DNA of 64,000 nt from Bacteroidota bacterium (GCA_021811615.1 JAJZNW010000087.1:2263-66262), one strand, 5' to 3'. Shown: positions 16,343-52,006, counted from the first letter of the stretch. The notes: generated by a model from the letters alone, not told the origin. Numbers and translations: made by a program.

Positions 16343-18994
16343 ATGAGAGAAGAAGTAGCCATAGCAATTGAGAAATTGAACTCGAAGCGTGAAAGCGCTA
16401 AGAGTCTGCACTCTTCCGGTGCGAAAGGGTCGGAAGTATCGCTGGCATTGACTGCCGCCGTTGATGAAGCCATCGTCAGGGCCGTCGAGGAGGTGGGCAA
16501 TCCGGACAACATCGCTGCGGTCGCAGTGGGTGGATACGGGAGAGCGGAGCTCTGCCCGCATTCCGACATCGATATTCTCTTTATCGTGGGAAGCGGAATC
16601 GAATCGAGTTTCCTGGCCCAGCGTATAATGCATTTTCTTTGGGATATGGGGCTGAACATCGGGCATTCGGTCCGCAACGTCGGGCAGGTTCTCCAGACTT
16701 ACAAGGACGATCACGACAGCTGGGCCGCGACGCTGGAGTACCGGTACGTGGCCGGGAGCAGGAAGCTCTTCGTGAAGCTCGAATCGGCGATCAGAGACTT
16801 CGTCTCGAAGAACACCGACAGAAGCTTCGTGAAATCCACGCTCGACGGCATCCGCGTGCGGCATAACAAATACGGCAGATCGACATCGCTGCTGGAGCCG
16901 AATCTGAAGAAGAGTGCAGGCGGGCTTCGCGATCTGCATGCACTCCTCTGGATGTACCGGGACATGTATCCCGATTTCCTCCCGGAGATAAATTACGAGC
17001 TGAAGCAGCCCGCTATCCTTGATTTTTTATCGAAACTTCTCGAAAAGGGCTACATAAACCAGCTTCAATACAATCACACGAGCGAAGCTTTCGAGTTCAT
17101 CTTACGCACGAGGCAGAGCCTTCATTATCAGTCTGCAAGCCTCAACGACCTCCTCGATTTCGAGATTCAAAAAAAAGTCGCTGTCGAGATGGGGTATGAA
17201 AGTGAGGATTATACAAGGGGAATCGAGAGCTTCATGCGCGTGTACTTCCGTCACGCGAGAAAAATACTCAGGCTAAACCAGGTCCTTTCTGACAAGATGA
17301 GGGCTGCCCTGAGGCCGCTGGAGGAGAGGGGCGAGGCAAGATACCTCGACGAAGATTATGCGCTCGCCGGAGACCAGATAGCTTTCAGACGAGAGGTGAC
17401 GACCGATCCCGTTATTCTGTTCAAGGCTTTCAAGCACAAGTCGGATACCGGACTTCACTTCGACGAAAACGTCCACGAGACGATAGCCCGCGAGCTCGAG
17501 AGTTTCAGCAAGCCGGAATTTCAGAGATCGAGCGAAGCGGCAGGGATATTCAAGTCTATTCTTCTTTCCGAGAAGAATGTGGCGTTCACGTTGAAATCGA
17601 TGAACGAACTCGGCGTGCTCGGGAGATATTTGCCGGAGTTCGGCAGGCTGATCGGTTTCTTCCAGCATAATGTCTATCATTATTACACTGCCGATGAGCA
17701 CACTCTCTCCGCTATCGAGAACCTCGAGACCGTCGGAGAACATGACAGGGTCCTCGGCGAGCTGCTGGCGGGCATCAAGAGGCGGGATACACTCTACCTC
17801 GGGGTACTGTTCCACGACATCGCCAAACCGATCTCCATCGGGAAACATGAGATAATCGGAGTCGACGTTGCGGAGAAGGCGCTCGGACGCGTCGGGTTCG
17901 ACGACATTATCGAGGATGTCGGCTTCCTCGTGAGGAATCACCTCAAGATGGAACAGATAGCGTTCCGGCGCAATATCGGCGACCCGGAAACGGTCTACTC
18001 GTTCACAAGGTTATTCGCGAACGAAGAACAGCTGAAGATGCTCTACCTCCTGACATACGCCGACCTCAGCGCAGTCAACCCGACCGTATGGACGAAGTGG
18101 AAGGCTCAGCTTCTCAATGAGCTCTACAGGAAATCTTACCAGATAGTCACTCAGGCGCTTGACCAGGAAGCTATAGAGACGCTTCAGCAGAAGCAGCGCC
18201 GCGAGAAAGAGAAGGCAATTATCAGGAAAATGCCTGGCGAGAAAACCGAAGCTATTCGGAAGCACTTCGGCGGGATTAAGAACGATCTCTATACCGTCGT
18301 GTTTGAAGATGGAGAGATAGTCGGCCATATCGAGGCCATTGAGTCGGACTTCGCGAGCGGCTCGACTGTCGCGGCAGTTCATGTAGACTTCAGTCGCAGC
18401 GATGAGTATACCGACGTAACGATCATCTCGCGCGATGCCCCGTTCCTCCTGTCCAAGTTTTGCTCTTCATTGAGCGCCAATGATGCCAATATCGTCGATG
18501 CCAGCATTTTCACAAGAGACGACGGGATAATCATCGACCGCTTCCGAGTGTTCGACAACATCACGAAGAAGAATCTTGCGGACTCACAGATGACGAAGAT
18601 CGAGTCCGATCTGCGTGCGATCCTGTCCGGCGAATCCGATCCGGAAAAGCTGTTCGAACGCCACAGGATGAAATGGCAGAGGAGGCTCAAGCACGAGGTG
18701 AACCCGAACGTCAAGGTGGCGGTTCAGACTTCAGAGACGAGCGACTTTACCCTCATCGAGGTGTTCGCTCCCGATTCTTTAGGTTTCCTCTATAAGGTCA
18801 CTTCTGCCATGTCGAGGGCGAAACTGAGTATCCACTTCGCGAAGATCGCCACGAGGGTCGACGGCATTGTCGATACCTTCTATGTACTGCGCCACGACGG
18901 CACCAAGCCTTCACCTGAAGAGCTGGACAGCGTGAGAGAGAGTATCCTGGAAATTGTGCACGAATCGATCGACTCCGAACTGATCTTCAAGTGA
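16343..18994 (+). CDS. glnD: [protein-PII] uridylyltransferase/uridylyl-removing enzyme
   Basis: Nucleotidyltransferase motif VGGYGRAELCPHSDIDILF, HD domain LGVLFHDIAKP, two C-terminal ACT-like segments, 883 aa. Confidence 0.88.
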   Translation: MREEVAIAIEKLNSKRESAKSLHSSGAKGSEVSLALTAAVDEAIVRAVEEVGNPDNIAAVAVGGYGRAELCPHSDIDILFIVGSGIESSFLAQRIMHFLWDMGLNIGHSVRNVGQVLQTYKDDHDSWAATLEYRYVAGSRKLFVKLESAIRDFVSKNTDRSFVKSTLDGIRVRHNKYGRSTSLLEPNLKKSAGGLRDLHALLWMYRDMYPDFLPEINYELKQPAILDFLSKLLEKGYINQLQYNHTSEAFEFILRTRQSLHYQSASLNDLLDFEIQKKVAVEMGYESEDYTRGIESFMRVYFRHARKILRLNQVLSDKMRAALRPLEERGEARYLDEDYALAGDQIAFRREVTTDPVILFKAFKHKSDTGLHFDENVHETIARELESFSKPEFQRSSEAAGIFKSILLSEKNVAFTLKSMNELGVLGRYLPEFGRLIGFFQHNVYHYYTADEHTLSAIENLETVGEHDRVLGELLAGIKRRDTLYLGVLFHDIAKPISIGKHEIIGVDVAEKALGRVGFDDIIEDVGFLVRNHLKMEQIAFRRNIGDPETVYSFTRLFANEEQLKMLYLLTYADLSAVNPTVWTKWKAQLLNELYRKSYQIVTQALDQEAIETLQQKQRREKEKAIIRKMPGEKTEAIRKHFGGIKNDLYTVVFEDGEIVGHIEAIESDFASGSTVAAVHVDFSRSDEYTDVTIISRDAPFLLSKFCSSLSANDANIVDASIFTRDDGIIIDRFRVFDNITKKNLADSQMTKIESDLRAILSGESDPEKLFERHRMKWQRRLKHEVNPNVKVAVQTSETSDFTLIEVFAPDSLGFLYKVTSAMSRAKLSIHFAKIATRVDGIVDTFYVLRHDGTKPSPEELDSVRESILEIVHESIDSELIFK

Positions 18995-19830
18995 TTTCAC
19001 CCGAAACAATACGAGGACCGGAGAGCCCGATAGGAGTGTTCGACTCCGGAATCGGCGGGCTCACTGTCGTGCGCCAGCTCATCGAGCTCCTGCCCAACGA
19101 GAACATCGTTTATTTCGGCGACACGGCGAGGGTACCTTACGGCAACAAGTCTGCGGAGGTCATCAGGGAATATGCCGTCCAGGACGCGAAGTTCCTCGTC
19201 TCGAAGGGGGTCAAGATTATCGTCATAGCGTGCAACACCGCTTCCGCGCTTGCAATGGATGCGGTCCACGCTTATTCTCCCGTCCCGACTATCGGCGTCA
19301 TCGAGCCGACAGCAAAAGAAGCCGCGAAGCTCTCGGGGTCGAAGGGAGTCGGAGTCATCGGGACGCTTTCGACGATCGGTTCCGGGGCTTACACTTCCGC
19401 ACTTCAACTGATCGATCCGAAGGCGAAGATAATGACGCAGGCATGTCCTCTGTTCGTGCCTCTCGCGGAAGAGGGGATGTTCGAACACCAAGTGACCGAT
19501 CTTGTCGCGCGCGAATACCTTTCGAAGTTCGCCGGCAAAGTCGATGTGATGATACTAGGATGCACGCATTATCCTCTTCTTCGGGGAGCGATATCCGGTA
19601 TCCTCGGAAACGATGTTTGCCTTGTCGATGCGGGCGCCGCGACCGCGAAGTCGGTATTTGAGATGCTGTCTTGCTCTGAAATGCTGAACCCTCAAAAGTC
19701 CAAGCCGCGCTACGAATTCTACGTCAGCGACTTTCCACAGAAGTTCAACGAGATTGCAGAGAGGTTTCTCGGCAGGAAACTGGAGTTCGTGAGAAAGGTG
19801 CAGATTTACTCCAGCGGCGAAATCCGCTGA
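18991..19830 (+). CDS. murI: glutamate racemase
   Basis: IGVFDSGIGGLTV, the catalytic Cys motifs IACNTAS and LGCTHYPLL, and a GTGA overlap with glnD. Confidence 0.95.
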   Translation: MISPETIRGPESPIGVFDSGIGGLTVVRQLIELLPNENIVYFGDTARVPYGNKSAEVIREYAVQDAKFLVSKGVKIIVIACNTASALAMDAVHAYSPVPTIGVIEPTAKEAAKLSGSKGVGVIGTLSTIGSGAYTSALQLIDPKAKIMTQACPLFVPLAEEGMFEHQVTDLVAREYLSKFAGKVDVMILGCTHYPLLRGAISGILGNDVCLVDAGAATAKSVFEMLSCSEMLNPQKSKPRYEFYVSDFPQKFNEIAERFLGRKLEFVRKVQIYSSGEIR

Positions 19831-19842
19831 GGGTATCGCCCG

Positions 19843-20367
19843 CCCGGAATGCCAGCTCATCGGCTCGGAATGGGAATTCTCAGCCTCGGAATGGGAAATC
19901 ACAAGCTCGGAATGCGAAATCACAGCCTCGGAATGCCGGCTCACAGCCTCGGAATGCGAAATCGCAGCCTCGGAATGCCGGCTCACAGCCTCGGAATGCG
20001 AAATCGCAGCCTCGGAATGCCAGCTCAAAGCCTCGGAATGCGAAATCGCAGCCTCGGAATGCCGGCTCAAAGCCTCGGAATGAGAAGTCACGAGCTCGGA
20101 ATGCCGGCTCAAAGCCTCGGAATGAGAAGTCACAAGCTCGGAATGCCAGCTAAAAGCCTCGGAATGCGAAATCACAAGCTCGGAATGCCAGCTCAAAGCC
20201 TCGGAATGAGAAGTCACGAGCTCGGAATGCCGGCTCAAAGCCTCGGAATGAGAAGTCACAAGCTCGGAATGCCAGCTAAAAGCCTCGGAATGAGAAGTCA
20301 CAAGCTCGGAATGCCGGCTGACAGTCTCGGAATGCGAAATCGCAGGCTCGGAATGCGGATTCACCGG
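19843..20367. repeat. 25 tandem copies of a 21-bp unit (invariant core CTCGGAATG + 12 variable bp, alternating A/B subtypes giving a 42-bp super-unit)
   Basis: Read directly; units start at 19843+21n. There are exact higher-order duplications: 19927-19968 = 19969-20010 and 20074-20157 = 20200-20283. The array fills the convergent gap between murI (stop 19830) and the GNAT gene (stop 20382). Confidence 0.97.
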
Positions 20368-20381
20368 CTACGCCGGAGCTT

Positions 20382-20870
20382 TCAGCCTTTCACTTGCGCC
20401 AGGTCCAGCTCGAAGAACATCGCGTCCGGAAGCGGATTCACACGGTATTGCGGAATTTCCCTGAACCCGAACGACCTGTAAAGCGCGATGGCTTCAACCA
20501 TCGAGCTCACAGTGTCGAGCCGCATCTTCCCGTATCCGATTTGTCTTGCCTCGTCGATAACCCTTTCCGCGAGTCTCCTCCCGAGTTTCAATCCTCGAAA
20601 CTCCGGCCTTACATAGAGTCTTTTCATCTCGCAGATCCCCTCTTCCAGCCTCCTCAGTGCCACACAACCCGCCGCGTGGTTGCCTCCAAGCGCTACAAGT
20701 ATGCATCCGCCGGGTCTCGAGTACTCACCGGGGAGATGAGATACCTCTTCGTCGAAGTTTTGAAAGTCGAGATCGAAGGGAAGTGACTTCTCGTACTCCA
20801 GGAAGAGATTTTTTGCGGCCGAGAGCAGCTCCTCTGAATCGGCATCGAGTATTCGGAGCGTGGGTTTCAT
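20382..20870 (-). CDS. GNAT-family N-acetyltransferase
   Basis: Acetyl-CoA motif A: CEMKRLYVRPEFRGLKLGRRLAERVIDEAR. Start chosen at MKPTLRIL (ATG); a GTG at 20921 is the alternative. Confidence 0.85.
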   Translation of the reverse strand: MKPTLRILDADSEELLSAAKNLFLEYEKSLPFDLDFQNFDEEVSHLPGEYSRPGGCILVALGGNHAAGCVALRRLEEGICEMKRLYVRPEFRGLKLGRRLAERVIDEARQIGYGKMRLDTVSSMVEAIALYRSFGFREIPQYRVNPLPDAMFFELDLAQVKG

Positions 20871-21067
20871 GAAAGGAGTGATGCTTCTGTCTTCCTGAAG
20901 TTGGTGTCTCGACTCATCCACTGTCCCGAGGTTGTCCCCAAAGTGGCCATCCGATGAATCGGACGGCTAGCAACGGCGCAAAGCCTTCCGGGTTTCATGC
21001 TTTCAGAGGCGTCGATTTCAATAGATGCCTCTTTGGGGATCGCTTGTCAGGAGGTAAGTACGTTCCA

Positions 21068-50105: not shown

Positions 50106-50521
50106 AAGTGCGGAAGAACCACTCGGAAATCGGTTAAGATTAATTAATATTAAGGGTCACAGAAAAACCTTGCGTCGCTTTCTTTTGTTATAGAAATTGA
50201 AGCGAGGTTATTAGATGATGATTGCGGTTCTTATGTCGGCCTTCTTAGCGACCGGAAGAGTCAAAGGCGACACGCTTAGTACGAGGGGCCTTGCGAAGGA
50301 CTTTAGGATGTTCTATCATCCACCTGCGGTGTTTCTGAACCAATCTCAGAATGCGATGTGGGAAAGAAATATTATGCCCCTGATCTTCGTCTCTCCATTC
50401 GGTACCGGTTCCTTTCTTTACAGGTACGACGGTCAGCCTACGAGTCGCGGGTCAGAAATAGGGCCTGGTGGGATTAAGCGTAGCGACGAGAATTCGCGTC
50501 GAAAAAAATGAGGTGATTGCC

Positions 50522-52006
50522 ATGAAAACAAAGTTGGCGACTTTAGCACTTTCGCTCCTGGTCGTTCTCGGGATGTCGGGCTGTTACACCGAGTTTGCGG
50601 CCACTAGCGGCAATTACGGTGGCTACGGGTCATCGTACAGTTCCAGCAGTTCCGATACTTCTCAATACGGTTACAGTCCTACTTACTATGATTCGACGGG
50701 CGCTCCGCAGGTAAACCCAAATTACCCCAGCAGTGAATATGGATACGGTACCTTCGGCATGGGTGGTTACGGGTTCGGTAATCCGTGGCCCTATAACAAT
50801 TACGGCTTTTTCGGTCCTTCATACGGGTATTATCCTGGGTGGACTTACAGCATGTATTACCCCAGTTCGGCCTGGTGGCCGATGGACTCGTGGTCTCTAG
50901 GATTTGGCCTTAATTCATGGTATGGCGGCCCATACTCATATGGTGGTCTTGCCGGTTGGGGGAATTGGGACTGGAACTACTATACTCTGGGCTATCTGGG
51001 TGGGTACTATCCGTATAATTCATATTACGGAGGTTACGGTCCGTATTCTTCGTATTACCCATACTACTCCTCCTACGGAGGGACTGGCGTCGGATATCCA
51101 GCAAGGGCCAGGAACATCGGCGGCACGCGACTCGGACGTGACTACGGCAGCGGTGCGATGCCCGTTGGCAGCGGGACCGGGGCGGCTGTCGGTACAGCCA
51201 GCGGTGTGAGAGGAGAATCGGTAGGCGCGAATGGTTCCTCCGTTACCAGGACCAGGACAGGAGGTTCGGAGAACCCGGTGGGAGGGTATGGTACGGTCAA
51301 CAATGTAAATAACCGCCAGAGGGTGCGCGAGCGTGTCCCGAGATACACCCCGGCTGCACAGGGTAATCCGAACTCTGCCCCATCACCGGCGCAGCGCGGC
51401 AGGGCCAGCTATACTCCAGCATCTCAGCAGAATCCGAATCCGGCGCCGAATGCGCAGCCGCAGCAGCCGAATCAGCAGCCGCCTGTTAGACAGCGTGCTC
51501 CAAGTTATAACCCGCCTCCGCGGAACAATTCGAACCCGGCACCGAACTCTCAACCACAACAGCCGAGTCCGCAGCCACAGCCGCAGCCACGAGTTCGCGA
51601 ACAGGCGCCGAGTTATAACCCGCCGCCTCAGTACAATCCGCCTCCGCAGTATAATCCGCCGCCACAGTACAACCCGCCTCCACAGTATAATCCGCCGCCG
51701 CAGTACAACCCGCCTCCGCAGGCGCCGCCTCCGAGGATCAGGCATGAGTATTCATCGTACGAACTCGGCGCGATTCGAGCCCAGGCGTCGCAGCCAGTGC
51801 AAGAGGTGAGAGTGATCAGGGAGCGTTTCAACTATGCTCCACCGGTGCAGATAGCACGCGCCGGTCAGATGCCGAGTTTCAGGGAGAACGCGCCTCGTTT
51901 TGGTTACCGCGCCGCTTCGGCAATGCCGGCAATGAGAGAGTCAACTCCTTCCGCACCCCCGTCAAGGGGTGCGGTCGCCAGCGGGGGAGCGAGAGTGCGC
52001 CACTGA
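50522..52006 (+). CDS. low-complexity lipoprotein (Tyr/Gly/Ser-rich then Pro/Gln/Asn/Arg-rich repeats)
   Basis: GAGGTG SD and signal plus lipobox LVVLGMSGC. The extreme composition is visible in the translation, and only this frame is open across the whole region with a signal peptide. Confidence 0.7.
   Translation: MKTKLATLALSLLVVLGMSGCYTEFAATSGNYGGYGSSYSSSSSDTSQYGYSPTYYDSTGAPQVNPNYPSSEYGYGTFGMGGYGFGNPWPYNNYGFFGPSYGYYPGWTYSMYYPSSAWWPMDSWSLGFGLNSWYGGPYSYGGLAGWGNWDWNYYTLGYLGGYYPYNSYYGGYGPYSSYYPYYSSYGGTGVGYPARARNIGGTRLGRDYGSGAMPVGSGTGAAVGTASGVRGESVGANGSSVTRTRTGGSENPVGGYGTVNNVNNRQRVRERVPRYTPAAQGNPNSAPSPAQRGRASYTPASQQNPNPAPNAQPQQPNQQPPVRQRAPSYNPPPRNNSNPAPNSQPQQPSPQPQPQPRVREQAPSYNPPPQYNPPPQYNPPPQYNPPPQYNPPPQYNPPPQAPPPRIRHEYSSYELGAIRAQASQPVQEVRVIRERFNYAPPVQIARAGQMPSFRENAPRFGYRAASAMPAMRESTPSAPPSRGAVASGGARVRH
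51614..51721 (+). repeat. 6 x 18-bp in-frame repeat encoding YNPPPQ
   Basis: tat aac ccg ccg cct cag / tac aat ccg cct ccg cag / tat aat ccg ccg cca cag / tac aac ccg cct cca cag / tat aat ccg ccg ccg cag / tac aac ccg cct ccg cag. The peptide is identical across copies, but the codons differ synonymously. Confidence 0.95.

Follow-up and report, generated by a model that had tools for sequence, protein, structure and literature searches.

A phased tandem array with a conserved 9-nt core between convergent murI and GNAT genes, a possible hairpin-less relative of NTS/dRS3-type repeats

In a 64,000-nt stretch of DNA from a Bacteroidota bacterium (GCA_021811615.1, JAJZNW010000087.1:2263-66262; hereafter the window), the gap between murI and a convergent GNAT acetyltransferase gene is occupied by a tandem array at positions 19843..20367 of the plus strand, comprising 25 head-to-tail units of 21 bp with zero insertions or deletions when the sequence is cut in 21-bp steps from 19843. 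Comparison with orthologous arrays from two related lineages shows that the 9-nt core of the unit, CTCGGAATG, is under purifying selection while the remaining 12 nt drift, and that an array has been present in this gap since before the three lineages split. The array is best filed as a hairpin-less tandem variant that appears to be related to the NTS/dRS3/SRM repeats. Intergenic tandem repeats in bacteria are usually dismissed as junk or assembly noise.

Each unit consists of the core at positions 1-9 followed by 12 variable nucleotides. The core is exact in units 2-25 and reads CCCGGAATG in unit 1; the T at position 15 is also invariant and the C at position 16 nearly so, and the information content per column is 2.0 bits at unit positions 1, 3-9 and 15. 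All cores lie on one strand, with none on the minus strand, the GC content of the array is 56%, and 15 distinct unit types can be distinguished. Cutting the sequence directly into 21-bp pieces bore out the preliminary description of this DNA, which had reported 25 units with an invariant core in units 2-25. It had also stated that the array fills the whole convergent gap, and indeed just 12 nt separate the murI stop (19830) from the first unit and 14 nt the last unit from the GNAT stop (20382). Tandem Repeats Finder, a check proposed at that stage, returned a single array at 19845-20356 with a period of 42 bp, 12.2 copies and a score of 654. The alternation of A-type and B-type units described earlier is confined to units 4-24, and fails in units 2-4, which are three consecutive B-like units. 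Both exact higher-order duplications noted before are true string identities: the 42-bp A+B dimer of units 5-6 recurs as units 7-8 (19927..20010, plus strand; 19927-19968 = 19969-20010), which is a recent tandem duplication, and 84 bp spanning units 12-15 recur exactly as units 18-21 at an offset of 126 bp (20074..20283, plus strand; 20074-20157 = 20200-20283). The longest exact repeat inside the array measures 102 bp (20065/20191). The array had been said not to be CRISPR, and this identity was rejected here as well, since repeats of 23-55 bp with unique spacers would be expected, whereas the unit is 21 bp long and the variable 12 nt are a few related types repeated many times.

The gene order HisKA-GlnD-MurI, facing GNAT-UvrD-ASL, is conserved among relatives of the window. 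The murI/GNAT gap measures 551 bp with the array in the window, 165 bp with no array in the sister lineage (loci L128-132), 355 bp of unrelated sequence in L134, 84 bp in L196, 44 bp in L135-137, and 18 bp in L193-195 and L197; neither the sister lineage nor any of the six other related gap configurations sampled contains the array. A decayed array remnant was sought in the sister-lineage gap and none was found, 1311 of 2000 shuffled sequences scoring as well. In L133 (GCA_046703445.1), the same gap holds 16 in-phase, degenerate 21-bp units with the consensus CTCGGAATG-AGTTTCC..., and in L191 (SRR31012008) it holds an array of the L133 type, within which the contig ends and in which a 1-nt insertion breaks the phase. 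Homologous units can be read directly in the window and L133 (e.g. CGAAATCGCAGC versus CGAATCCGCCGT), as can a homologous right boundary of the array (...ATTCACCGG...TTCAGCC). A tree of GlnD and MurI has the topology ((L133,L191),(L128,window)), with L134 and L135 outside, and under the simplest scenario the array was gained once, in the common ancestor of these four lineages, and later lost in L128. Before a common GCCCGGRAC landmark there are eight units in L191 and seven in L133, and the comparisons show that copy number changes in 21-bp steps and multiples thereof (42, 84 and 126 bp). The one-unit difference between L133 and L191 supports the recent unequal exchange that had been proposed from the higher-order duplications. 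At a further locus (L192 1260-1853, SRR10244963; MurI 84% identical), synteny is broken and there is no array: downstream of murI, a 594-bp gap leads to a co-directional FG-GAP/Por_Secre_tail gene in place of GNAT.

Among the unit types of the window, one extra column state occurs in the nine core columns versus 19 in the twelve variable columns; by our own calculation, the binomial probability of finding no more than one of 20 changes in the core, if they were spread evenly, is ~2e-4. Between species, orthologous units of L133 and L191 differ by 11.1% in the core and 33.3% in the variable part, against a difference of 54.3% (uncorrected, and near saturation) at 4-fold degenerate sites of the flanking glnD and murI. 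The corresponding Jukes-Cantor distances are 0.12, 0.44 and 0.97, the core evolving ~8 times more slowly than 4-fold sites and ~3.7 times more slowly than the variable part; non-orthologous unit pairs from the same two arrays show 34% core and 61% variable differences. That the core is nearly unchanged while 4-fold sites have diverged by 54% implies a sequence-specific reader, and the earlier suggestion of a protein recognition site in the core is strengthened by this test. It bears equally on the idea of a functionless neutral minisatellite, in which the perfect cores would be a by-product of very recent amplification from few founders. Such an idea would fit the exact internal duplications of 42, 84 and 102 bp, which show recent expansion, the dispensability of the array (lost in the sister lineage), its position in a 3'-3' gap tolerant of insertions, and the degenerate state of the L133 and L191 arrays. 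However, recent amplification within one lineage cannot explain a core that is conserved between species, and the 15 unit types of the window, with 19 changes in the variable part versus one in the core, do not favour it either. The neutral minisatellite is thus disfavoured by the L133/L191 divergence test, and we regard it as improbable.

A search for two cores 21 bp apart (CTCGGAATG-N12-CTCGGAATG) over 185,579 species genomes gave at least 120 loci in many phyla, with several genomes having many loci; Chloroflexota, Acidobacteriota, Bacteroidota, Firmicutes, Gemmatimonadota, Planctomycetota, Cyanobacteria and Proteobacteria are among the matches listed. Two features that were not part of the query recur in the 131 arrays listed, namely a GATTCY head upstream of the first core in 81 of them (14-15 nt away in 71) and AC(A) directly after the core in 95. 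Head and core covary (ATTCC/GGAAT in 140 cases, ATTCT/AGAAT in 15, ATTTC/GAAAT in 12, mismatched combinations being rare with 1-2 cases), and so does the inner pair, which had not been pre-selected (GC 32, AU 11, CG 9, unpaired 3). Given this covariation, the family is a real hairpin, of the form GATTCC-TC-GC-TTC-GC-TC-GGAATGAC with a conserved TC/TC mismatch. Elements of the type (G)AGATTCC-TCGCTnCG-CTCGGAATGACA are found across phyla (e.g. L097 7309-8000, minus strand; L070 4199-4900; L004, L010 and L014), and their 3' half is often repeated in tandem, with 2-12 additional copies at periods of ~18-27 bp; an inverted GTCATTCTGAG closes such half-repeat series in Dehalococcoidia. The orientation of the family relative to flanking genes was unbiased in a crude test, an all-against-all comparison of open reading frames (ORFs) near 120 family loci revealed no neighbour gene conserved across phyla, and a typical family element had no BLAST match to plasmids.

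Literature searches by DNA strings and by peptides from the spurious ORFs described below gave no match other than via a related string, GTCATTCCCGC, which led to a paper on the Ssn nucleases. In Neisseria, the NTS, CGTCATTCCCGCGMAVGCGGGAATCYRG, extends the classical dRS3 repeat, and SsnA, a 94-aa GIY-YIG nuclease, binds and cuts it as single-stranded DNA, not as double-stranded DNA or RNA (Chenal et al. 2025, PMC11893778). The same paper reports that a conserved GTC immediately 5' of the palindrome (in NTS orientation) is needed for SsnA cleavage and that NTS-like 'Ssn-related motifs' (SRM), with the pattern HGTCWYN(0-2)YYVSBRHN(0-5)WNVSBRGN(0-2)RNCYNB, flank ssn homologues across phyla; it makes no mention of tandem arrays or tandem half-repeats (PMC11893778). 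The scanned hairpin family matches the published NTS. In addition, loci L092 (3330-4060) and L013 (6100-6800) each contain a GIY-YIG ORF of 92-94 aa (PF01541, E 1e-13 and 1e-15) that is flanked on both sides by family repeats, which is the published NTS-ssn-NTS layout. The published SRM pattern matches none of these ssn-flanking repeats and gives 18 matches in 854 kb of loci L001-L120, which hold ~170 such hairpins; it therefore misses a large NTS-like subfamily with a CTC/GAG mismatch, found in Chloroflexota, Acidobacteriota, Bacteroidota, Firmicutes and others.

Several other loci returned by the scan are of separate interest. Three Acidobacteriaceae metagenome-assembled genomes (MAGs; L004, L010 and L014) have an orthologous NTS-like element with two tandem cores at one syntenic position, the cores being identical and the 9-nt spacers diverged (acaagaatgtgg/acaaaatgcatg/acaagggtggtg), so that a constant core again stands beside freely changing positions, just as in the window array; L029 and L068 share this synteny, the element having been read in the former three only. 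Cyanobacteria (Calothrix, L005; Cylindrospermum, L047; Lyngbya, L056; and L147) share a 21-bp unit, CTCGGAATG-TCGAGCTTGGAA, in 9-14 copies without a GATTCC head, and CTCG...CGAG within this unit could form a small hairpin. In L143 (8694-9281, minus strand) and L146 (7842-8324, minus strand), there are 23-28 units of 21 bp with the pattern reversed, CTYGGAAYN varying and GATCAGAAGCAA being invariant, so that the 'core' is the variable part; these are unrelated arrays that match the query by chance, and serve as a warning for such scans.

The core of the window array (CATTCCGAG on the other strand) is the exact conserved half of the CTC/GAG-mismatch hairpin GATTCC-TCGCTTCG-CTCGGAATGAC and is identical to columns 20-28 in the consensus of the family alignment, AGATTCCTCGCTnCGCTCGGAATGACA. 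It corresponds to the 3' half of the hairpin, i.e. the inner-pair C, the TC mismatch, the GGAAT arm and a G, which is C-ATTCC-GAG on the other strand. Moreover, the L133 and L191 arrays open with a GAGATTTTC that resembles the head and precedes CTC(A/G)AAATG, giving an ATTTT/AAAAT pairing that parallels the family covariation, and the complementarity of unit positions 12-17 to the next GGAAT amounts to 30/50, 38/75 and 59/120 versus ~25% expected. It is plausible that T15 and C16 in the window are what is left of the partner arm.

A number of results weigh against a derivation from the hairpin family and against a function built on it. A covariance model (R1, from 55 hairpins) run with filters off gave no match at E<=10 in the window, L133 or L191 arrays, and the published SRM pattern is found nowhere in the array and just once, in isolation, elsewhere in the window (15824). 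The GTC flank is absent, the minus-strand units reading CG-, GG- or CT- before CATTCCGAG and none of them GT. The plus strand folds worse than shuffled sequences (z +2.5), and RNA folding of both strands of the window and L133 arrays gave no significant structure. The 64-kb window and the relatives' loci contain no complete NTS-like hairpin and no other family copies, and no GIY-YIG gene, including the single-domain cd10448 type to which ssn belongs, was detected there by tblastn with an approximate probe that does find the L092 and L013 genes. Control scans of viral contigs, with the 9-mer permuted and the 21-bp spacing kept, returned 16, 0 and 21 matches compared with 5 for the real core, so that a pair of cores at this distance carries no significance of its own; the probability of meeting a consensus arm with 1-2 mismatches by chance is ~0.1. 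The non-ACA arrays of other organisms are heterogeneous (14 loci in the metagenome scan). Finally, the sister lineage lost the array without trace, and the array is therefore dispensable. A general interpretation of non-ACA arrays as tandem mini-hairpins was rejected separately (4 of 19 fit versus 2.4 expected), and a metagenome scan for the window's own A-type unit had 0 matches.

Since the array units fail the structural tests, the family link rests on one 9-mer together with weak vestigial complementarity, and with no hairpin, no GTC flank and a failed covariance model the array can be at most a hairpin-less derivative of the family, not a member. The preliminary description had recognized the core from no described repeat family; this statement is weakened by the finding that the core is exactly the conserved 3' half of an NTS/dRS3-like repeat, although the units themselves fail the family tests. 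From these sequence comparisons, we put the probability that the array descends from an NTS-type repeat at about one half.

The best explanation, which we hold tentatively and somewhat short of an even chance, is that the array is a selected set of recognition sites, derived from NTS-type repeats and read at the DNA level by an Ssn-like factor. According to this model, the units would have descended from an NTS/dRS3-type 'Ssn-related' hairpin repeat whose partner arm decayed to xxxTC in the window, with the result that the units no longer fold. The array would then be a phased cluster of DNA-level recognition sites for a sequence-specific factor, the 9-mer probably being the site. The most likely factor would be an Ssn-like GIY-YIG nuclease or binder of single-stranded DNA, of the kind that recognizes NTS-type repeats, which would act whenever replication, repair or transformation leaves the gap single-stranded. 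The array would expand and contract by slippage and by unequal exchange among units, and core-mutated units would be removed by selection or not re-amplified.

A more specific proposal, possible but not probable in our judgement, is that a chromosomal half-NTS array, free of hairpins and made up of 16-25 phased C-ATTCC-GAG copies, is a functional cis-element of a new type, read either by an Ssn-like reader of single-stranded DNA or by a protein that binds double-stranded DNA. Such an element may serve as a decoy or as a hotspot of cleavage, and so keep incoming or displaced single strands from recombining across the murI-GNAT junction; alternatively, nicking by the factor may itself drive the 21-bp expansions. 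If true, this proposal would add a new substrate architecture to the Ssn/NTS system and bring the FCB group within its range. The description of the NTS/Ssn repeat family dates only from 2025 and covers single hairpins alone. Should the NTS link be real, long arrays without hairpins can arise from Ssn-type repeats, the range of the family includes Kryptoniota-like bacteria, and the 42-bp dimer would provide a simple substrate for asking which part of the NTS the nuclease reads.

The conserved core and its spacing may also be explained without any relation to NTS, by 25 asymmetric 9-bp sites, two helical turns apart, that are bound head-to-tail by a protein specific for double-stranded DNA in the manner of iterons, of a sopC/parC centromere or of a titration sink. 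The strict 21-bp phasing with no indels over 525 bp, retained over the 16 degenerate units of L133, agrees with such binding, as do the purifying selection on the core and the near-confinement of the 9-mer to the array within the 64 kb, where it occurs once elsewhere (27731, plus strand), approximately as expected by chance. The 12.2 copies of the 42-bp super-unit also resemble sopC of the F plasmid, which has twelve 43-bp repeats. However, there is no adjacent rep, par or other DNA-binding gene, the array being set among GlnD, MurI, GNAT, UvrD and ASL on a 128-kb chromosomal contig of housekeeping character; the array is missing from the sister lineage and the six other gap configurations; the L191 insertion breaks the phase; and the core has exactly the sequence of the conserved arm in a repeat family known to be recognized as single-stranded DNA. 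We therefore consider this explanation unlikely. The iteron or centromere analogy drawn in the preliminary description found no support, as neither rep/par genes nor a DnaA-box cluster nor plasmid context was seen, and ParA, ParB and ParR were absent from the called genes and Pfam matches around the array. Roles similar to those of Chi, uptake sequences or KOPS were rejected because neither the CTCGGAATG 9-mer nor its 7-mers are over-represented across the window.

For an RNA-level role, the array would be transcribed as the 3' untranslated region of murI and present 25 unstructured CUCGGAAUG motifs to an RNA-binding protein, as a sponge or stabiliser. The core is in sense orientation to murI in each of the three genomes with an array (window, L133 and L191), no terminator separates murI from the array, each core contains GGA, and the plus-strand RNA, being less structured than shuffled sequences, would leave the motifs exposed. 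On the other hand, CsrB-type sponges show GGA in hairpin loops, which the array does not, and relatives manage with gaps of 18-84 bp. Rfam gave no match to the window at the gathering score, chance-level matches only around the array at a permissive threshold (E 1.4 and 7.7), and nothing in 18 related loci, and a promoter and terminator scan of the murI/GNAT gap found nothing that would define a transcript. A DNA-level role is favoured because the related hairpin family is unbiased in orientation, its known partner SsnA ignores RNA and nothing defines a transcript, which leaves an RNA element a rather poor prospect.

Both strands have an open frame across the array, as the preliminary description had noted while doubting that either is coding: an ORF of 210 aa with LGMxxxS heptads (19849..20481, plus strand), which overlaps GNAT by 100 nt in antisense, and one of 269 aa with xHSExxx heptads (19555..20364, minus strand), which overlaps murI by 276 nt in antisense. 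An ordinary gene for a heptad-repeat protein in either frame is highly improbable, even though the public ENA record calls the LGM-heptad frame 19849-20481 as a 210-aa gene. Coding is rejected because the orthologous array of L133 has three stops in the LGM frame and two in the HSE frame, Pfam gave no credible match to either ORF (the sole signal for the plus-strand ORF being a sub-threshold EIF3E_C at E 0.0065, 16 bits versus a cutoff of 27), and a search of 5.8 billion proteins found no homologue of the plus-strand ORF at E<=1e-3; exact-sequence cluster look-ups also found nothing. In addition, neither frame can be accommodated without running antisense into a well-supported gene, the core is no less invariant at third-codon positions than elsewhere, two of six frames being open in a 21-bp unit is about what chance would give, and no frame is consistently open among other CTCGGAATG arrays. 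The array is non-coding, and the ENA gene call is spurious and caused by the repeat.

The window is part of a 128-kb MEGAHIT contig (ENA ERZ27237454), and the nearest named relatives of its MurI come from 'Bacteroidetes bacterium' and 'Candidatus Kryptoniota' MAGs, which suggests that the source MAG is Kryptoniota-like (FCB group). An artefact of short-read metagenome assembly is unlikely, and we give it very little credence, although the copy number rests on a short-read assembly (MEGAHIT, k141) and a Logan contig (SRR13221994) breaks within the array. The assembly path through the array is unique because the longest internal exact repeat, 102 bp, is shorter than k=141; the same Logan contig reproduces murI and the first 122 bp past its stop with 0 mismatches before it ends; and orthologous arrays are present in two other projects. 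The flanking genes are well supported, with murI (glutamate racemase) upstream at 18991..19830 on the plus strand (PF01177, E 1.4e-19) and the GNAT acetyltransferase gene downstream at 20382..20870 on the minus strand (PF00583, E 1.8e-17). The GNAT start codon is uncertain, as an ORF from the GTG at 20921 would encode 179 aa (20382-20921, minus strand) and the public call is 162 aa (start 20870). The window has a second tandem repeat, at 51434-51721, which is coding: it lies inside ORF 50468-52006 (plus strand) and consists of six YNPPPQ repeats with periods of 18, 36 and 54 bp. The 512-aa product, in which Tyr, Gly, Ser and Pro are abundant, is of low complexity; it has a hydrophobic segment at the N-terminus and the YNPPPQ repeats near its C-terminus.

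Compared with known systems, the array resembles plasmid iterons and sopC-parC centromeres in its conserved asymmetric core and in its phased direct repeats; its 25 units of exactly 21 bp fall within the iteron range of 17-22 bp at about two helical turns, next to the ~21-22 bp (or 12 x 43 bp) phasing of those elements. It differs from them in having no rep/par gene, AT-rich unwinding element or plasmid context and in its patchy occurrence among close relatives. REP/BIME elements, which are associated with RAYT transposases, are likewise short extragenic repeats in 3' gaps, and the alternating-unit arrays of BIME-2 recall the A/B super-unit. However, REPs are imperfect palindromes of alternating orientation and are lineage-specific, whereas the array is direct and has no palindrome; no Y1 transposase was seen near it, and membership was rejected as all cores are on one strand, a palindrome is lacking and the related family has no recurrent neighbour gene. 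MIRU-VNTR minisatellites share intergenic tandem repeats with open frames, higher-order duplications and copy-number change between lineages, which the array shows as a whole-unit difference (8 in L191 versus 7 in L133), but MIRUs measure 40-100 bp, lie between co-directional operon genes and lack the division into an invariant core and a free remainder. The CsrB/RsmZ sponge RNAs also have many GGA-containing repeats in one stretch, and differ from the array in their Rfam match, GGA hairpin loops, promoter and terminator. Neisseria intergenic mosaic elements (NIMEs) are arrays of repeat units of 50-150 bp that are bounded by complete inverted dRS3 repeats; both they and the array are intergenic, contain dRS3/NTS-type sequence downstream of genes and vary in unit number, although the array units are 21 bp long, occur in direct orientation only and amount to half a hairpin. 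With respect to the NTS/dRS3/SRM elements themselves, the array differs in that its units have neither hairpin nor GTC flank, in its 25 copies versus 2-12 elsewhere, and in that neither an ssn gene nor dispersed copies were seen across the 64-kb window and the relatives' loci. It agrees with them in being intergenic, as are these elements in many phyla, often with 2-12 tandem extra arm copies, in the identity of their conserved arm with its core, and in the head-like complement with which the L133 and L191 arrays start.

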